64,000 nt of DNA from Anthoceros angustus (lineage: Eukaryota > Plantae > Anthocerotophyta): NCBI GenBank assembly GCA_010909165.1, contig MU008159.1, forward strand, positions 248,001 through 312,000, in the 5' to 3' direction. Below, in pieces: positions 7,283-31,051 of this stretch (position 1 is its first letter; every line of letters begins with the position of its first letter). The position numbers and the translations under genes are program-made. A model generated the notes under the pieces. It was not told where the DNA came from and did no database searches. It saw only the letters and a program-made list of their open reading frames with translations.

Positions 7283-8086
7283 TGGTATTAGAGCAATTCA
7301 ATCAATTTCATGGCAATCTAGCTTCCTATTTCAGCAGGCCTACTCAACATGAAGAGGCGCCACCAATCCTGGCTCATGGAACTTCTTCCAATTGCTGAAC
7401 GTAGCAAGAAAGATAAGAGATCAGAAAAATGTCAGGTTTCTTGCATCTTTCGATGCCTGCTTTAATGGACTAATCTGCAGAGGAAATGATAAAGAACCAT
7501 CAGTTCTGTTGGAGTCACTTACCCCAAACATCTACACGAACCTCTTGTTGCTGTAGAAACACCTGCAACAGTAGAATTTGCCATTATTCTTCAGTAGTTG
7601 TTCATCAAAGCTAAAAGAGACACTTTCAGATCTCATAACCCCCTTATACATGTACAAAACAAACTCCAGGCATTAGCAAAAGAAGCTTACGCATACCAAC
7701 GTAAGACAAAATTCGATAATATCATGCTACACAAGCAAATAGGGAAGTTAGAACACAAGATCAAGCAGCTAGGAAGCCAATTCCGTCAATTTTAAATTTC
7801 AGTGGTTACAGGATCCAAAGCAGACACACCCATTTACTCTGCACGAGATCCCGTAGTGTCTTACATGCCAATTACATCCAAATTGGCTTATACACGTCCT
7901 GCTGAACCTGTAGATCTTGCCTCTTACAAACATCTACCAGAGCCTCTAGAGATGACTCTTATAGGTCTAGCTTCTATGTTAGACTCAGATTCAACTCCCA
8001 AGGATAGCTACATCCTGTAGTCTTCCTGTCTTTAAAAGGATAGCTACCAGTAACCCTAGTTTTTCATTAACATCAATACCCAAACC

Positions 8087-11000
8087 ATGGCTACTGGTTC
8101 TCAACAGACATCTACCATAGTTGGTAGCATTCCTCCTATGGTAGAAATTAAGGACAGGGATAGATTTAATGGTACTGATTTTGATACTTGGGAAATGAGA
8201 ATGGTAGCTATCTTAGAAGAACAGGAATTAATGGATGTAGTGGATGGGACTCTAGCAAGACCCGTTACACCTACTCCTAAACTTGCTGCTGGCAGCCCAG
8301 CTGCCCTAGTGATAATAGCATGGCATAAGAAGGACAAAAGGGCCAGAAACATTCTGCTTTCTGCCCCTAGACAGAAACATGATGTCACATACTCAGGGCC
8401 AAACAACAGCTGCTGCAGTATGGACAGTCTTCAAAGATATGTTTTCTGCCAAAGACCCCATGGCTCACCTTAATGCCACAAGACAATTATACACAATGAC
8501 AATGAAAGAGACGGATACCATAGAGGACCATGTGCATAGGTTTCGGACTCTGAGGGCCAAGCTTGCTTCTGCTGATCCAGCCAGATCCACGGTTACAGAA
8601 CTTCAAGCTGCCAATATACTGCTCTCATCTCTTCCTGCAAGCTACCGTACTATAGTCAGTACTCAGGCTTCGGTATTAAGACAAGTTGCAAAAGCAGCAC
8701 CTGCTGGACATGCTCCAGCCATTACCTTATCGGAGATTATTGGAGCCCTGCTTGAAGAAGAGTCTAGCAAAATAGGAACAGGCCGTGCTTCCTTCTCCCA
8801 TCAACAACAGCATGTCTTGTATACCTCTAGGGGAAGAGGACGAGGCAGAGGCGGTTTTCGGCCAAGACACCACTATAGTAGACCTGGAAATAGCTCCACA
8901 TCTGGACAGCGGAAGGCAAAAGGCCCCTGTAGCTGGTGATGCATACCTGGTCACTATGAACACGAGTGCCGAAAGAAACTTGCAGGAGAGCCTCGTCATC
9001 CTGCAACAGAAACACATATGGTTAGATCAAACCCTAATAACAAGGCACCAGCTATACTTGCAGTCTGTCTGTCACTCACCAAGGTAGAGAAATCTATGTG
9101 GTTCCTTGACTCATGTGCAACTAACCACATCTGTCAATCAAAAGACATGTTCATAACTGATACAAAATCTGCCACTAGCCAATTCGTGCCCTTAGGTGAC
9201 GACCATGGATTATCCATAGAAGGATCAAGGCAAGTCATGCTTACCCTCAATTGTGGACAGCAGGTCATCCTACAAGGAGTCGTACATTTTCCACACATGA
9301 CAAAAAATCTGTTATCAGTTCATAAGCTTACAACTGAGCATCCATTGTAGTTACTTTTTAAACCAGGGTCCTGCACCCTAACACCAGCAAATCAGAACTC
9401 ACTTGTATTAGCAGTAGGAGTCCCATACCATGGTCTCTATAGCCTGCAAATTACAACACCAGAATCATTACATAAGGCCAATGTTGCTGATGCAAAGCCT
9501 GGTGTTAGTCCTACTTTTCTATGGCACTGTCGCCTATGCCACCCAAGTCCAGCTTTTCTACAGAGAGTTGTTCAACATCGAGAACTGTACAAAGATGGAC
9601 TTACCCTTACACTTGAAGATAGCACCTTCTGCGAGAGCTGCCAATATGGAAAGATAACACAGAAACCTTATAATGATCCTGAACCAACCAAGGCTACTAC
9701 CCTGCTGGAAGTTGTCCATTCGGACATTTGTGGACCCATGTCCACACAATCTCTAGTGGGAGCCATCTATTTCTTATCTTTTATGGACAAATGGAGTCAT
9801 TATTGCCAACTCTATTATTTACATAGCCGCCAGCAGACTTATGCCAAGTTTGTTGAATATGTGGCTATGGCTGAAGCTCAAACGGGATGCACCATTAAGC
9901 GTTTACGAATTGACAATGCCAAGGAATATGTCAGCGGAGACTTCAGTGCTTTCAGCAGACAAAAGGGCATAATACACCAGTTAACAATTCCATATCATCC
10001 GCCCCAAAATCCAGTTGCAGAGCGCTATAACAGGACTTTGCAAGAAAGGACAAGAGCCACACTCACTTTGGCAGGACTTACCAGGGGATATTGGGCGGAG
10101 GCAGTGGACTCTATCAACTATGTCACCAACAGGTTGCCTCTAAAGCCTTTTTATGACACCACACCCTTTGAGAGATGGACTGGTGACAAACCTCGTATCC
10201 GTCACCTCAGAATCTTCGGAGCAGCAGCCTATGCCTACATACCAGCAGACAAGCGAAGAAAGATGGACCACAAAGCCACAAAGCATATATTTGTTGGCTA
10301 TTCAGATACGGTGAAAGGATGCAAGCTTTATAATCCCTCTACCAGGGAGCTATCCATAGCACGCTGTGTAAGCTTTAATGAATCCTATATCCTGCAGTCC
10401 CACGAGAAATTTGTATCCAGTTATGACACTCTGCCTGCAGTCACCATACATGGCCATACACCTATATATGAAGACAGTTTACCCGATTCAGATTTAGACA
10501 GTGACCACGTGATTTTTGAGCCAGAGACAGTTGCAGTTTTGCCTGCAGCCCCTGATCCACTTGGTCATGATAATGATCAGCCTGATGAGGCCACTGTCCA
10601 AGCTGATGAGTTGGAGATGGATCCAGCAGAACCTGATTTACCAATTCAACCTGCACATGATGAACCGCTCGAACATGAGTATAATTATGCTGAACAGCCA
10701 GCCATGCATGATTTTGCTGAACAGCCAGCTAGACAGGATTTGGCCAGAGATGAACCAATTCCTCTACGACGATCAGCCAGGATACACAGACCACGTTCAG
10801 AATGGCTAAATCCTCCTATGAACCTTTCAGCCTTCGCATCAGACTCTACAAGGGAAAGTCTTGAACAGATGGCTCGACATATGGCTTATACTATTATGGA
10901 ACCACCTGATACTCCAATGACCTACAAGAAGGCTCTCGCCTCACCACAAAAATCAGATTGGCAAAAGGCAATCGACAGCGAATATAAATCACTCATGGAC

Positions 11001-12490
11001 AACCAAACATGGAAACTGGTTAGATTACCTCCAGGGCGTAAGGCAATTACCTCCAAGTGGGTTTTTAAGTTGAAGCTAAATCCGGATGGTTCTGTTGCCC
11101 GCTACAAGGCACGTTTGGTCGCCAGAGGATACACACAAGTACAAGGGCTTGATTATAACGAGACTTTCAGTCCCATGGTGAAGCCCACCTCTATGAGGAT
11201 ACTCCTCTGCTATGCCATTCAACACAATTTACTAGTCCACCAGATGGACGTTAAAACAGCCTTTTTAAACGGTCCCCTGGACGAGACCATCTTCATTACA
11301 CAGCCAGAAGGATATGTGTTTGATCCAGACCTTGTGTGTGAACTGCTGAAGTCATTATATAGGCTGAAACAATCAGCTCGCATATGGAACAGACAAGCTG
11401 ACAAGAAGCTTCGAGCTTTAGGTTTTGAACCTCTCACAGCAGATTGCAGCATGTATGTCCTGCGTACAGCAAACGGATTATGTATCATTGCGCTGTATGT
11501 AGATGATAATTTCATATTCGCTAGCAGCAGGAAATTCTCACACAAGTTAAAAGGACTTAGCTGAAGAGTGGGATATGACTGATGTTGGTCCTCTACGTTT
11601 TGCTCTTGGAATCCAATTCCATTTTAATCCATTGATGCTTGGTGACCCTACATCAAGAGCACTTCATTAGACAAATTCTGAACAAGTTTCAGCTACAAGA
11701 TATTAATCCTGTTGCCACCCTGTTGCTGTTGGAGAAAAGCTCTCAATAGCAGACTGCCCAACAACAGAGGCGGAAAAATATGAAATGTCTCAAATACCTT
11801 ATAGGAGGTTGTCGAGTCTTCTATACCTTGCAGGATGGACACGTCCTGATATTTCTCTAGCAACAGGCGTTGTATCACGTTATTTATCAAACCCTGGCAG
11901 CGACACTGGATCGCTGTTAAGAGAATCCAATGCTATTTAAAGGGAACTAGGCATCTATGTCTCAGGTATACTAAAGCACAAGACTTCACACTTACCTGCT
12001 ACACGGATGCAGATTGGGCCGGTGATGTGGATGGACGGAAGTCCATAGCTGCCTACTACAATCTCCTTTGTGGATCTGCCATAAGTTGGCAAAGCAAAAG
12101 CTTAGCACTATCAGCCTCTCATCTACGGAAGCAGAATACAGTGCTTTATCCTTGGCAGCCGAGATCAGCTGGATACGTCAATTCCTCACAGACATTAAAG
12201 TACCCCAGACTAGCCCTACGACATTACAATGTGACAACCAGTCGGCAATCGCGCCATCAGCTAATCCTATTCTACATGCCAGATCAAAGCACATAGAAAT
12301 TCAGTTTCACTATATCAGGCAAGCCGTTGAACAGAAGATCATAGCTTTAATTTATGTGCCAACAGCCCAAAACGTGGCAGACCTGCTTACAAAAGGCCTA
12401 AGCAAGCAGCTGCATGAGCAGCACAGACTCTCCTTGGGTCTAACAAACATTACTTATCTCAAGGCTGACGGCAAACATGCAACTGGGTAG
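8087..12490 (+). pseudogene. Copia gag-pol polyprotein, disrupted by frameshifts and stops
   Basis: Split over ORFs 8087-8473, 8379-8939, 9018-9350, 9738-11564 and 12068-12490. Stop codon inside the gag zinc knuckle; several frame changes in RT/RNase H. Confidence 0.9.
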
Positions 12491-13060
12491 TCCGATTGCA
12501 GGTCGCTACAGCTTGCAGGAGTTGGGGCAACTTCGCAGTGGATACCTCTTATGTTTCTAGCAGGCGAGTTCAACCGCTCCAGTATCTGCAGCAAGCCCAC
12601 ATGTCAGACCCTGCAGCAACCTGGATGAAGCTCAAAGCACACAACAAATCAGTTTGCAGCAGTGGCGTACCCTCTCCTATTTCACTTAATTTCGGACAGC
12701 AACACCTAGCATGCAGCTCTGGGCATGAGCCAAAGCTCTGTGCCTGTTATGGGCAGACTCACGCGAGTCATATGGGGCAGCATCTCCTCTCCAAGCTGCA
12801 AGCTACGTCGTTTTTTGCTCCTTTCTCCTTTCTCCTTAGGGACTTCACACGCGCGCAGCAGCTATGTAATGTGGCGTTGCTCACCATCTCATGCCCGGCG
12901 TAAGTTCTCGCGACAGTCCGTTTTTCTTTTGAGCCGCGGGACTATGTATGGTCGAGAATTCACGTTCACAACAACCACAGAAGACGCGCAGCCTTATCAA
13001 CAACCTTGTCTTTTTTTTTCAACCCGTAACCTATGATCCTCAGTTAGGTTTGAGAGGGGG

Positions 13061-13256
13061 TGTAGAAATAAGTAATTATTTATTATCATCCCAAACTAGT
13101 TATCATACTAGGTTAGGGTTAGTGTAGCGTTATTGTGAAACTCCCATACTCTCCAGCACCACCTTCTTGTACCACACACGTTTTTGCTCAATTTACTTCT
13201 CACACAACGCCATCTCTGTATGATTGCTCGATGCTTGTACTTGCCATAACTGTTTA
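13061..13256 (+). repeat. 3' LTR of copia element
   Basis: Copy of 7081-7282 with a handful of substitutions and two small indels; preceded by a purine tract. Confidence 0.92.
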
Positions 13257-24676: not shown

Positions 24677-26432
24677 TCACGGTCGACCCTTAAAACCGCA
24701 ACATCCATTTGCGAATCGATGGCGACGGTACCCATGCCGTACAACAATGCCTCTCTGTTCAAGCCTTGACATGATCTCCGTAGAATTGTAGCAGTCGCTG
24801 TACATGCGTAGATTCTTCGTTACCGCCAGAGGCCTTTCCCTTCTCACAGTGGCTTCAGCACCAACTTTGTGAGGTACGTGGCCTCTTTCCAGCTTCAGAC
24901 GTGCATTAGAGCTCTCTACCTTAAGCCCAATGTCCTCTCTCCTTTCTCCCACCAGATCTCGCAATGCTCGACAGTAGGTTCCATGCCATGCTGTTCAGCC
25001 ATGGGATCAGAGTGCTTGCGACCATCGTGGACCAGTCCCTCATGACTGCATGCTACTAGAAGGCAAGAAAAAAAACAGCAGCAGGCTGAATACCGGCAAC
25101 TAACATCTCCTCAAAACAAACTAGTGCTGTGTGACCATCATCACAAGTACCAAACCAAGATATCAGGGCATTCCACGTCACCACATCCTTTGTGGCCAAG
25201 CTGTCAAAAACCCGGCATGCATCTTCCAGTTCACCACATTTTGCATACATGTCCACCAGGCAGTTGCCCGACACTATGTTATCCAGCAGTCCTCTTTCAA
25301 CAATCTGTGAGTGCAGCTGCCTGCCCTTCTGTCAGGCACCAGTGCTTGCACGGGCCTTCAGAAGGGCATCCAGGCCAAGCGCGTCTTGGCCTGGCCCTTG
25401 CTGTGCATACCCGCCTATCAGGGCTTCCATGTCACCACATCCTTTGTGGCCAAGACGTCAAAGACCCTGCGTGCATCTTCCAGTTCGCGACATTTTGCAT
25501 ACATGTCCACCAGGCAGGTGCCAACAGACAAGTTCGGAGGAAGGTATGCAACAAATCAAAGTGCACTTTTCGGCCAGATTCCAAGTCGGCGGCAAAGGCA
25601 CAAGCTTGAAGGGCCGCTGCAAAGACTGAGCGTCCTCCTTTACTCCTGATCTACGCATCTCAAGGTACAGTTTCAAGGCCTCAATAGGTTTCCCGTGCCT
25701 AGCATGTGCAGAGATTATGGAAAACCACATGAAGGCATCTCGTTTGCCCACCCCGGTGAACACATCCAAAGCCTCCTGCAGCCGACCTCCCAATGCATCC
25801 ATACGCAAGATAAGGTTCCCCAAGTATGCATTCGACTCGTACCCAAGTTTGACAGTGAGGTCATGAACTCGTCGCCCCACAACCAGATCCTTCTTAGCTG
25901 CACAGTTTTAACACGGTGTAAAACAGAGACTGAGAAATCGCAAAATCTGTCTGCGCCAGAGATTCCAGGGCTCCAAAGCTTCCCTGCTCACAAAACGGGG
26001 CGCACGGTTAAAGCCGTCACGGCACCCATCGCCGATCCTGCACGCCTGCCACTTGAAAGGAGAGGCACTATGACCCATCTGCATATCCAAGGAAACAAGC
26101 TGCTCATCAACCCAAGCGGGCTTAAGCATGCTGTTTAACCACAGGACTTCGCCGGACCCCTTACGGAAGTCAGGCGAAAGGGAGCTCTTCTTATCTCGTC
26201 TGTTGTCCCACCACATGGTAAGGTCCCAGACAAATTGTCGCCACAAGTGCTCCTGCTCCTGGCGACGAGCATCGCTGGAAAATCCGTCCCCATCCACACA
26301 TTTTCTAGGAAGTGGCAGTGCTGGGCACCTTGCACTGCTGCACATGGTGGCTAGGTTGTTCGCCGGGAATTGACTACCTGAAGCGAGGTGGGCGGGAGCC
26401 AGACACCGATTTGTTGGGTCCACTCTGGCCAT
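24677..26432 (-). pseudogene. PLS-class PPR protein with N-terminal OSB 'PDF' motif and C-terminal DYW:KP (GRP-type) remnant; frameshifted and internally deleted
   Basis: PPR motifs GRRVH, LVDMYAKCGELEDACRVFD, DVVTWNALI, ACSHEGLV lie in different frames. C-terminus VGERREDIGLKV...GHVPH...VTKNLRMYSDC...HRFANGCCGFKGRP*. N-terminus LW..F....WWDNR..K....PDFR...GEVLWL....PAWV. Confidence 0.85.
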
Positions 26433-27006
26433 CGTTCAGGCACCACTGTCGGGACATGAGTCTAACAAAAACCCATTGGCAGGATGCCCAGGTCTATGGT
26501 CACACCCTCCAGGAGGGCAGGCGGTATTTTTGTCAAGAACCACCGGCAGAAGACACCAATACTAACAATAGGAATGTGGAATAAAATGGTTCCCGAGTAG
26601 ATGGGACACCCCGGTGTAGCGAGGATGCCAGGTCTCCGACACGCTTTTCTTTGTGTGCTCAAGAGGTGCGTGGCAGACAAGGATTTGGTTTGTGGGTGAG
26701 CGCGTGCATGCTCTGGTAGTCCAACGGGGGTACGGCTCGAATGCATTCTTGGCCAATCATATCATAGGGATATAGCAATTACCCAAGAGTCGAAGCAAAA
26801 GTGCTCCTAGAAAACATCACTAACCACCCAGATGCGTGAGGTGCAAAAATGAGGCAGTCGGCATTTACCTGCGAAGAAGCTGGTCATGATCAGAAGCTGG
26901 CTCAAATGGATCAGGGACGAAGATTTAACACACGTCTGGAAAGATGTGATCTTACCGACATGAAATCCTGAAGAGGAACAAGACTTGCAGTTCTTCTGAG
27001 GAGTAG

Positions 27007-27954
27007 TCACACAGCAGGGGCCTGGTGAGGAACCTGACTCAGCTGCCAAACAAGCTGAAGTGTCAAAAGTAGAACCCTGACATTTGTCCACAAGACTGCC
27101 GGGGCCATGGAGGATAACGCACATGACTCAAAATGGGGACCCAGTCCCAACCACGAGGCTTCTCTGCAGTAGCACCATATCTGTCGAAATATCGCCGTTT
27201 CTGAGATTTTGTCAACTTGTCTTTATCCTTTCCTTCCTTCCTGGTCGCACCTGGCTGTGAGTTGTCTGCAGGACCAGCACCATCCGAATCTCCTCCTTCA
27301 TCGTCATCCTGAAAGGTAATCAAAAGTAAGAAACTACTGTATATGATACAGATGCAATATGCTTGGTCTTACAAGTATTCAGCTTGTCCACAGTCCAGCC
27401 GTGTCGCAGCCGGATAGCTTACGATGTGGGAAACTGTTGGTTTGAGGGCATAGAATTCCACCAGCCTTTCCTTCAGCCATTCCACCAAGTTGTAACACAT
27501 GCTTTCCCCAAGCTGCTGAGAAGCCTGCACAAGACAACAAGACGTGGGTAGGTCCTGGACCTCACAACGTGGACCAACAGCAAGCTCGAGTGCAGCAGCT
27601 CAAACGAGACGTGAGCAGCTACCTCTCAAATTGGAAGGCATAAGGCGAATTGCTCGGTAAAGGTAAGAGCAGAGCAAAGACCTGTTGCAGCAACCCATCA
27701 ATGATGCTCTTCTTGACGAAGTCCGGATATGTGCTGTTGTTGATATTGCTGAGATTAAATTCTGGAAGCGCATCCGGGTAGCCAGCCAGCAGACTCACCT
27801 CGAGAAACAAAGGAGGAGGCATACTTGCCGAGGAAGCCATATCCTCCTGCTCGCTGGGATCGATTCTGATGCGAAACCGATTCTCACTTGTTTTACTGAA
27901 ACTGTCGTAGAATATAGCTTCCAAAGCCATCAGCTCCTCTTCGATCACCTCCAT
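27007..27954 (-). CDS. RWDD4: RWD domain-containing protein, RWDD4-like
   Basis: MEVIEEELMALEAIF, YPDALP, LGESMCYNLVEWLKE; C-terminal LTKSQKRR...PRGWDWV..LSH|LS, typical of RWDD4. GT-AG introns; stop at 27007-27009. Confidence 0.85.
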
Positions 27955-28981
27955 GTCCACGTGAGCTGGGAAAAGACAGCCCTTGCAGAGTCCACAAAAA
28001 ATTCGCAACAAGCAGCCTAGGGCTCTGGTACTTTGAATTAAGAATCGTCCGATGGTCACCAATACGTCTCGGAGTCTTTTTAAGCTCTCCATAAAATCCT
28101 TACATGGGAATTAGACTCCATTAAGGGGTAGGAGCCTGCAGACCACCTTGTAAGGTAGGACTCTCGGATGGCCAACGGTGGACTCCGGACCTCCGGACGG
28201 CGTGGATTTGTGCCTGTGGTGTATGGATCTGAAAAACCCAAATTTGTTTGTGTCGTAGAGAAATGGATGTGAGCAGCTCTCGGTGGGTAATCGGCTCGTA
28301 GGGTCCTGCGACAGAAATCTCAGTGATTCTGCTGGGTATCAGGTCTCTTCCTGAGTGTGAATTGTGCTGCACAGTCCACTCATGAGCTCTTCGGCTGGTG
28401 CAATTCCCCACTTTGGCTGGTTCAATTCCCCCTGCGACTGCATTCGTGCGTTCTTCTTCGTATAGCGGCCTTTAGTGCTCACAGATTTCGCCACTTGCAG
28501 AGGAGACTCATGGACTTCTTTGATCATTAAGCCTGGCCTGTGTTAACTGTGCTGAGCTGCTGAGGCTGAAGGCTGCATCTATCAATCTGCTGCAGTTGTG
28601 GGTCCTAGGATTGAGTGAAACTACTTTGGTGCTCTCGGCAGACATGTAGTGGGCGGCGCTTGCAATTTGTACTCGCCGGGAGCTTAGGAAGACCTACCTG
28701 TTGTTGATGGTTGCATTGGAATGTACATGTGAGACATCTGCCTAAACCCTAAACCCCGATCTGCCCTCTTGTTTCATTGCTGCAGAGAATTGTAACAGCA
28801 GAGGACTAACAATCAATGCGGTTGAAGTGCCTGGGTAGCTTGGGTGCTCTTACACAGTAAGCTATTTTGACGGTCAAGTTTTAGACTTGTGCATCCCTTT
28901 AGGCTGCTGGTGGGATGTGGGGGAATCAGTACTAAGCTCAGAACTGTGTATGGTGCTCTTGTTGCAGTGAGAGGCATCTAA

Positions 28982-30435
28982 ATGCAAGGCATGAGGCTGC
29001 GCCATGCAATGGTGTGTGCTAGCAATCAAAACCGGAGTATGGAGGCACATGCCCTGCTAAAGAGAGAAGGGCTTGATGTCAGCTCCTATGGCACTGGAGC
29101 CCACGTGAAGCTACCTGGCCCGTCCATTCGTGAGCCAAATGTCTACACATTTGGCACCCCTTATCGTCAGATGTTTGAAGACCTCAAGAGAAAAGATCCT
29201 GACTTGTATCCATTTTACTTTGTCATACAAAACTGGGTTTGACAGTGATTGTTGCACGAGATAGGTTGCAACTGTAAGGTAGCCAGTTCAAGCACGCTCT
29301 GAGGAGGGAAAGCTTCTCTCTGGTGATGAGATGGGTCCATGTTATTCGAAGCAGATCCGCTCAGAACATTTTTTCCTCCTCGTAGATAAATTATCTTCTG
29401 TGATTGGAACAGAAGTTCTGGTGGTGATATTGTGTCTCATGCGTCTCTTATGTTTTGGTGCATTCGTGCTGCAATAAGGTAGAAACAAGTTGCTTGGTGT
29501 GTAAGATCGCCAACAGTATGAAAAGGAGAACCATTCATGTGTGTCGTATTGATTGGCTTTGAGCAACTGCTCGTACAGCTGCAATTTTCTCGTCCTAGAG
29601 GGACAAGTCAGAGTTTGTTTTCTGCTAAAAAAGTCCGCCAAGCTCTAACGAGTTTCGAAGATAACTGCTGTATTCCAGTCTGATTTGGTGTTGCTTATCT
29701 GTCGGTCTGTCTTGTCTGGTTTGGTCATGTCTCACATGGGACTTAGGAACTCTTGAAGTTATTGGAGTAGTCCTTAACAAGTTGCCCAGATATAAAAGAA
29801 ATGGACTTCTGCAGATGTTGAAACGCAACATGAATGTGAAGGAGGCACCACAGCGATGGCAGGACAATGCCCCCGATGGACCGTTTGACATTGTGTTGAC
29901 GTTTGAGGAGAGGGTATTTGATATCGTCAACGATGGTATGTATTGGCTTGCCCAAAGAGCCCTTTGCTGAGATTTGCATATGAACTTATTATTGCTTTTG
30001 CTTGAATGGGGTCCTTGCAGACCTACAAAACAGGACACAAACCCTGATGAAATGTGCTCTGGTCGTGAATCTGGATGTCAAGGACAACCATGAAGAGGCA
30101 GCATCAGGTGCCAAGTTGGTTCTTGAACTCTGCCAGAAGGTAAATATCCTCACCAGGGACTTGAAATTTTATTTAGCACGTCATGTGCTCACTGAGTATG
30201 TCCTTAGCGTGCTTGTTTGTTTGGATGTTCATGTAATCTTCCCACTTTAACGAATGCTGCATGTAATCTCACTAGTGTTTAGCTCGTCAGATTTGTTGTT
30301 TAGTTGGTGTCTTAGCTTAAGCTTTCAATGCAGCTGGAGGATGCGGAATCATGGGAGCTAGAAATCGAGTCCATCATCTTGCAGTTCGAAAAACAGTATA
30401 GAAGGCGACTATTATACAACATCTGCTTCTACTAA
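28982..30435 (+). CDS. SSU72: RNA polymerase II CTD phosphatase Ssu72
   Basis: Catalytic VCASNQNRSMEAH, SYGTG..VKLPGPS, YKRNGLLQML, FEERVFD, DVKDNHEEA, ends ICFY*. Four exons; the first intron is U12-type. Confidence 0.96.
29206..29789 (+). other. U12-type (minor spliceosome) GT-AG intron in SSU72
   Basis: Donor GTATCCATTT; branch point TCCTTAAC at 29771-29778, 11 nt from the intron end. Removal gives in-frame ...DPDL-YKRNG. Confidence 0.85.
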
Positions 30436-31051
30436 CCTCTTCTTGTAATGCCCCGCCTGTTATCCACCATTGTTGAAGTTCTCAACTGTCACACGTATAT
30501 GGTGAGCTCCTGTCTATGCCATGTCCAGAGCTAGCAGTTCGAATCTGCCCTCTGTATTACGTCACTTGGTACTAGAAGTCACACGGTTCAAATCGTCTGA
30601 CTTATTGTGTAGCCCACAACAGAAGCACAGCCACTCTGCTTCGTATTTCAAGTAGCCGCTGCAGATCAATGGAATTGTGATTTCTCGTTTCCTGCTTGCT
30701 GTAGGAAAAAGGCTGCCCTGGCTGTTGTGCAGACTCGGCGCAGCTTCTCACGCAGTATGCAAGGGTAGCAGGTTATGCTGACGACATTCTAGACGTTGTT
30801 GTGTGTCCATTTCTCCGGATGAACAATCGCAGGACCGAGCACTGTCCCGAGCATTCGGAGACCTATCGTTATTTATGACCATGCACATGCCTACCAAGAT
30901 TTTAAGTACTTATACAAGTGACAACTACAAGGTTAAAGTCCACAAGGACGTTTAAGCTGCGAGTTCGCAGCTTGCCAACGACTGAGCGCTGCGAACGAGG
31001 CCACTGGCATAGGTTGACATATACAAGCTTCTGTGCGTGTATGCAGAAATA

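Follow-up and report, generated by a model that had tools for sequence, protein, structure and literature searches.

Hornwort editing factors of the GRP type, in which a PPR array is joined to a DYW:KP domain, have reportedly been treated by Gerke et al. (2020) and Gutmann et al. (2020), and the organellar single-stranded DNA (ssDNA)-binding proteins OSB1 to OSB4 are said to have been described by Zaegel et al. (2006). In the OSB proteins, the PDF motif trails an OB fold. According to the accessible parts of Ichinose et al. (2022; PMC9478123), GRP is one of two DYW:KP variants in hornworts. The gene studied here, located in a 64-kb stretch of DNA from the hornwort Anthoceros angustus (the window), belongs to a family that has the PLS array, the E motifs, and the GRP-ending DYW:KP domain in common with these factors; its intact relatives also share KKPA and HAEKLA, and the remnant at the locus groups with them. 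The family differs from the described factors in an additional N-terminal PDF motif, which goes unmentioned in the searched text and supplements of PMC9478123, and the copy at the locus is frameshifted and has neither the KP box nor the HAE site.

The comparison with OSB1 to OSB4 is similarly mixed. Both have a PDF motif of about 50 residues with the same near-invariant residues, but the PPR-borne motif has no OB fold, is N-terminal and usually single, and precedes PPR repeats and a deaminase-type domain. The third comparison is with PPR proteins carrying extra domains (RRM-PPR, SMR, NYN, LAGLIDADG, CBS, and SAP) and with MORF, ORRM, and OZ-PPR fusions (PMC9459714, PMC13386178), with which the fusion has an added nucleic-acid-binding module in common. 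However, neither PDF nor OSB is among the extra domains catalogued for PPR proteins in the accessible parts of these two sources. Neither Pfam nor PHROGs contains a model that matches the motif, and domain surveys would therefore miss it.

Table 1. Features of the broken PDF-PPR gene and of the neighboring relic (positions in the window)
Feature	Position	Strand	Evidence
N-terminal leader, possible organelle transit peptide	26274..26432	-	Open frame; weak alignment to the P0128 leader
PDF motif (OSB type)	26079..26273	-	64.5 to 68 bits against an OSB-derived profile
Linker from PDF motif to first PPR-like unit, with a frame break in or directly after it	25990..26078	-	Frameshift-aware alignment to P0128; similar contigs abundant
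Degenerate PLS-type PPR array	24964..25989	-	Pfam PPR, E 2e-8; alignment to P0128
Remnant DYW:KP domain, GRP type	24677..24955	-	Pfam DYW_deaminase, E 2e-10; tree with four GRP proteins, SH-aLRT 97
Second, much shorter frameshifted relic of the same family's first PPR unit	26605..26766	+	tblastn, E 5e-7 to 1e-4, with 6/6 family proteins

Our analysis confirmed that the motif at the locus is real and more than chance. The peptide runs on the minus strand from LWRQF, which starts at 26246, to PAWV, which ends at 26109, within a stop-to-stop frame at 26435..25908 in which the first in-frame ATG of the leader is at 26432 and the second is at 26345. It retains the conserved W, D, R, K, PDF, LW, and PxW residues, with one conserved P altered and one residue missing after PDFR. 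Against a profile of 161 PDF motifs from OB-fold proteins it scored 68 bits, somewhat inflated because these motifs were retrieved with the locus motif itself (their OB-fold context is independent), and the best of 2000 shuffles reached 11.3 bits; the OSB-type motif of the original prediction was borne out. Nothing else in a six-frame translation of the window matched this profile (E 3.7e-19 for the motif; 0.86 for the next best).

With 71 residues (26070-26282) as the query, phmmer found 325 matches at an E-value of 0.001 or less among 1.84 billion representatives. Among the 150 matches listed, 77 had an OB fold in the OSB layout, as assigned by a profile built from six Pfam SSB regions, 13 had PPR repeats, as assigned by a PPR query, none had both, and 60 had neither. 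When 40 of the 150, chosen for their N-terminal motifs or as examples of OSBs, were scanned with Pfam, 12 had PPR matches and 8 had SSB matches, some below the curated cut-off. Sequence searches with the motif returned only chance rows from the PDB (E of at least 0.35) and no usable family from the Atlas families, and a word-indexed homologue search, which is weak evidence, yielded 4 candidates and no match. An AlphaFold model of the motif from a 35-row alignment (pLDDT 90.6) has a helix, two short strands, and a helix, with no clear structural match in the PDB or in viral fold libraries (best scores: Foldseek, E 6.7; VIA-align, Z 4.4 with an rmsd of 3.6 over 55 aligned residues). As a separate observation, five proteins (P0001, P0003, P0004, P0029, and P0047) carry 7 to 12 tandem PDF-like stretches, more than the 1 to 4 described for OSBs, and in four of them no OB fold or PPR was detected.

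PPR-like sequence begins 40 codons (25989) to 60 codons (25929) past PAWV, in a different frame, and a second frameshift near 25905 restores the frame of the motif; the predicted spacing of about 50 codons and one frameshift before the first PPR is right for the first degenerate repeat. In a frameshift-aware alignment, the whole gene is collinear with the intact protein P0128 from the leader to GRP, with 53% identity over 548 positions. The frame is broken about seven times (near 25969, 25905, 25627, 25544, 25425, 25072, and 24950), an in-frame stop lies near 25332, and one PPR repeat has a 17-residue deletion. About 110 residues comprising E1, E2, and the KP box are gone, as are about 25 residues across HAEKLA (the HAE, or HxE, zinc site); CxxC now reads YSDC, and the gene ends with GRP and a stop at 24680-24677. 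No SSB (OB-fold) match was found in the window's frames with Pfam.

The expected DYW:KP domain at the C terminus was recovered by phylogeny and is of GRP type. In a quick tree of 60 DYW domains, from which P0211 was left out, the locus grouped with all four GRP proteins (SH-aLRT 97) and was nearest to the two with a PDF motif; its branch length was 0.86, compared with about 0.2 for intact GRP proteins. A word-indexed homologue search with the DYW remnant, again weak evidence, gave 259 candidates and none at an E-value of 1e-5 or less. We conclude that a GRP-type PPR-DYW:KP editing factor has decayed into a pseudogene at this locus. As assembled, this copy cannot be an active editor, because large deletions have removed the catalytic site, whichever of the one-base breaks hold.

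How reliable are these breaks? Compared with a 2354-base contig of short-read run X1, the flank at 26240-27100 has seven extra bases and no substitutions. These are likely local insertion errors in the assembly, which bears on other frameshift claims in this genome, and some one-base errors within the gene are therefore possible. Six of the seven frame breaks in the gene, however, are base losses, opposite in sign to the extra bases of the flank. At 97% likeness, no single-copy contig spanned the interior of the gene. At 85% likeness, contigs of four runs piled up over the motif, the linker, the repeats, and the DYW end, and the pile-up dropped away just upstream of the motif. In run X1, the summed depth, which is not a copy number, was about 19,000 to 22,000 over the motif, 7,300 over the linker, and 7,400 to 13,800 over the DYW end, with 8.6 to 9.7 in the flanks. 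We read the pile-up only as a sign of many close relatives that would carry both motif and linker. Between 9 and 17 contigs per run carry the codon that is absent from the locus motif. In runs X4 and X6, which are RNA only by guess, the matching pieces were relatives of 85 to 95% likeness or were shorter than 60 bases.

The concern that no intact gene combines the two parts is answered by three intact proteins (P0128, P0155, and P0164), each of which joins PDF motif, PPR array, and DYW:KP domain in one frame, so that the predicted PDF-PPR-DYW:KP architecture exists. P0128 has 753 amino acids in a single frame, with the motif at residues 79 to 142, a PLS array, KKPA, HAEKLA, CTDC, and a GRP end. 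P0155 (950 amino acids; PDF motif, 70 bits) also ends in GRP, and P0164 (828 amino acids; PDF motif, 60 bits) ends in DRH. E motifs are present in all three, and the KP box and the HAE...CxxC site are intact in P0128 and P0155. The nearest intact relative of the locus, P0128, has RDF in place of PDF. Leaders of about 40 to 80 residues precede the motif in the intact relatives. A single-sequence fold of P0155 had residues 1 to 142 and 779 to 950 below a pLDDT of 50 and, owing to this low confidence at both ends, is silent on the placement of the PDF motif relative to the array. The idea that an OSB fragment and a PPR pseudogene lie side by side by chance, or through an assembly artefact, could draw on the two parts not sharing one open frame at the locus and on the locally imperfect assembly that the extra bases in the flank may indicate, but we reject it, given the intact one-frame fusions in the same GRP clade, the lack of an OB fold in the locus gene, and its collinearity with P0128 from leader to GRP.

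The PDF-PLS-E-DYW layout of the intact proteins is part of a wider distribution, in which the motif occurs on KP-type, PG-type, and DYW-less proteins of seed-free plants. Named fusions come from Sphagnum compactum (with a DYW end), Adiantum, Ceratopteris, Pteridium, Selaginella, and Diphasiastrum. The 13 PPR-bearing proteins among the matches listed, none of which has an OB fold, comprise one GRP protein, one DYW protein with a PG box (P0148, Sphagnum compactum), four long DYW-less proteins that end after E-type motifs (P0002; P0057, Adiantum; P0065, Selaginella; P0108, Ceratopteris), one with an odd tail (P0062, Adiantum), and six that seem incomplete, including Diphasiastrum and Pteridium proteins. 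One of P0002 and P0062 has three copies of the motif and the other has two. Across 19 PPR-borne motifs, the fourteen near-invariant OSB residues (W13, P20, W23, D25, R27, K30, P36, D37, F38, K41, L47, W48, P54, and W56) are retained at 89 to 100%; K39 is changed to R in about half and G44 is lost, and no other conserved residue is changed.

We also built a quick tree of the motif from 20 PPR-borne rows and 63 of the 161 OSB-borne rows over 64 columns, the rows being picked by likeness to the locus. Sixteen of the 20 PPR-borne motifs, the locus included, form one group with one OSB-labelled row (support 92, unstarred), and the tree needs 4 label changes, compared with 18 in shuffles. This topology is compatible with a single early capture. 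The supplement of the A. angustus genome paper (PMC7027989), in its accessible parts, lists a 312-base gene model (AANG006455) whose best hit is OSB3 and which has no Pfam domain, 540 bases upstream of the PLS-PPR model AANG006454 on the same strand. Going by this annotation alone, the two models are possibly a single split PDF-PPR gene.

The original prediction had further supposed a specific tie between the motif and KP-type DYW domains and thereby U-to-C editing. This part did not hold, and we rejected a KP-specific association. The motif is found on the DYW:PG protein of Sphagnum and on DYW-less proteins of ferns and of Selaginella; U-to-C editing is not known from Selaginella. A search with the C-terminal 169 residues of P0128, which is blind to the motif, returned 58 further proteins, 25 of KP type and 33 of PG type or other. 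A full PDF motif was present in 2 of the 25 (P0155 and P0164) and in none of the 33, which are a small, non-random, and mostly seed-plant sample. Many of the 25 KP proteins have no sequence ahead of the array, or begin within it, and are possibly truncated; a leader of roughly at least 60 residues is present in 12 of 26 KP proteins (two placed with weak scores), and 3 of these 12, the query included, have the motif. P0156 and P0161 may have kept half of it, as judged by eye (5.0 and 3.4 bits, not significant). According to the accessible parts of PMC9478123, KP domains do not occur outside hornworts, lycophytes, and ferns; hence, P0148 from Sphagnum breaks the KP link. Moreover, the designer consensus GRP proteins KP2 and KP3, assembled from PPR repeats and C-terminal parts, reach 22 to 26% U-to-C editing in E. 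coli (PMC9478123) and are the only GRP-type proteins for which this activity is shown; since they were built without the motif, it is not needed for the U-to-C reaction.

What, then, would such a motif do on an editing factor? We propose, with a probability of roughly 0.5, that it is an optional, sequence-unspecific single-strand-binding tether. The factor would be imported into the plastid or mitochondrion, where the PPR array would read the target RNA and the DYW domain would convert the base, as in known factors. The motif, which retains the residues of the ssDNA-binding OSB motif, would keep the factor close to single strands exposed in the nucleoid at the sites of emerging transcripts, and so raise the factor's local concentration; it would be dispensable for catalysis and repeatedly lost. 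The motif probably derives from an OSB gene, from which it was captured early in the history of land plants, and then multiplied with the expansions of the PPR genes. A tether is favored because, as far as the accessible parts of these sources go, the PDF motif of OSB1 alone suffices for ssDNA binding (PMC6963530) and OSB1 and OSB2 favor ssDNA over double-stranded DNA or RNA (PMC4166229; ssDNA binding by OSBs is also reviewed in PMC6451138). Against it, the conserved residues of the PPR-borne motif may merely hold the fold, most KP proteins have no PDF motif, and P0128 has RDF.

PPR arrays read RNA from N to C terminus as 5' to 3'. The N-terminal motif is therefore turned toward the 5' side of the RNA and not toward the polymerase, and docking at a transcription bubble, as the original prediction suggested, fits poorly. 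The same polarity speaks for a different possibility, namely that the motif has been retooled for RNA, grips or unfolds single-stranded RNA 5' of the PPR-bound site, and raises affinity, as a built-in helper where separate cofactors are few. Its conserved aromatic and basic residues suit either polymer, and its absence from the 33 PG-type, mostly seed-plant proteins points the same way, although that sample is small and non-random. However, OSB1 and OSB2 prefer ssDNA over RNA in the accessible parts of PMC4166229, and no residue change marks the PPR-borne copies other than K39 to R in about half and the loss of G44. We regard this role in RNA binding as possible but doubtful.

A more skeptical view takes the motif as a nearly neutral passenger in the leader of a duplicating PPR lineage, which decays when it is not needed. 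It is lost or absent in most KP proteins, P0156 and P0161 may show it halfway gone, the locus copy and the neighboring relic are both dead, and GRP genes are under-represented in transcriptomes according to the accessible parts of PMC9478123. Yet the same residues have been retained across mosses, lycophytes, ferns, and KP-type proteins, despite diverging leaders and linkers, and the two and three copies in P0002 and P0062 also count against a mere passenger, which we consider unlikely. Nor do we give much credit to a protein-contact module, which would pair DYW-less with DYW-bearing factors, or with OSB or other nucleoid proteins. The four DYW-less carriers would need a partner, OSB2 is a tetramer (PMC6963530, accessible parts), and the motif is predicted to fold as a compact unit, but ssDNA binding is the only measured PDF activity met in the accessible parts of the cited reviews; this pairing role seems quite unlikely.

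The tethering that we prefer could be extended to a much bolder scenario, which we hold to be very improbable. The first editing factors of land plants would have been tethered to nucleoids by a captured ssDNA module, and PDF-bearing factors, including a very large hornwort GRP expansion with poor representation in transcriptomes, would act at R-loops or replication bubbles and edit both RNA and organelle ssDNA, which would in turn influence how editing sites are gained and lost. That a PPR array can follow its RNA code on ssDNA is documented for designer arrays in the accessible parts of PMC12733224.

The widespread PDF-PPR architecture is apparently undescribed. Our search found no published description of the fusion; the papers by Gerke et al. 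(2020), Gutmann et al. (2020), and Zaegel et al. (2006) lay outside it and may mention one. In the accessible parts of a survey of editing factors in 364 genomes (PMC13386178), there were no word matches for PDF or OSB, and those of a review of moss PPR proteins (PMC9459714), a review of synthetic PPR proteins (PMC12733224), and the A. angustus genome paper (PMC7027989) contain no description of a PDF-PPR protein. The searchable parts of the supplements of PMC9478123 and PMC7027989 contain neither "PDF motif" nor WWDNR. Work on the editing factors of seed-free plants, like the design of U-to-C editors, proceeds from a PPR array plus a DYW domain. A conserved N-terminal module from DNA-maintenance proteins would connect organelle RNA editing to the nucleoid, and the motif might alter the efficiency, the target range, or the incomplete U-to-C reaction of editors expressed in bacteria. 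The dead copy at the locus and the lack of exclusivity to reverse editing weaken the earlier claim.

The window is gene-dense plant nuclear DNA with a GC content of about 48%, and the genes identified around the locus with Pfam include a Copia polyprotein, a kinase, an MFS protein, an RWD protein, and others. The relic listed last in Table 1 stands head-to-head with the PDF-PPR gene, at a distance of about 170 bases from the first ATG of that gene, and no PDF motif was detected with it. A Copia-type retrotransposon polyprotein segment with GAG-pre-integrase, integrase, and RVT_2 matches (Pfam) lies at 9351-11564 on the plus strand. A Myb/SANT-like open reading frame (ORF) at 19619-21490 on the minus strand (Pfam) adjoins a 282-residue ORF without a Pfam match; by resemblance, the two may form a PIF/Harbinger-type element. 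At 27060-30500, an RWD-domain gene on the minus strand (Pfam) and a plus-strand gene, which by eye we take to resemble an Ssu72 phosphatase, diverge from a short common promoter, and this promoter has a telomere-like CCTAAACCCTAAACCC box near 28742. About 90 bases beyond the GRP stop of the pseudogene, a tandem repeat at 24428-24585 consists of 5.1 copies of a 31-base unit with 83% matches.
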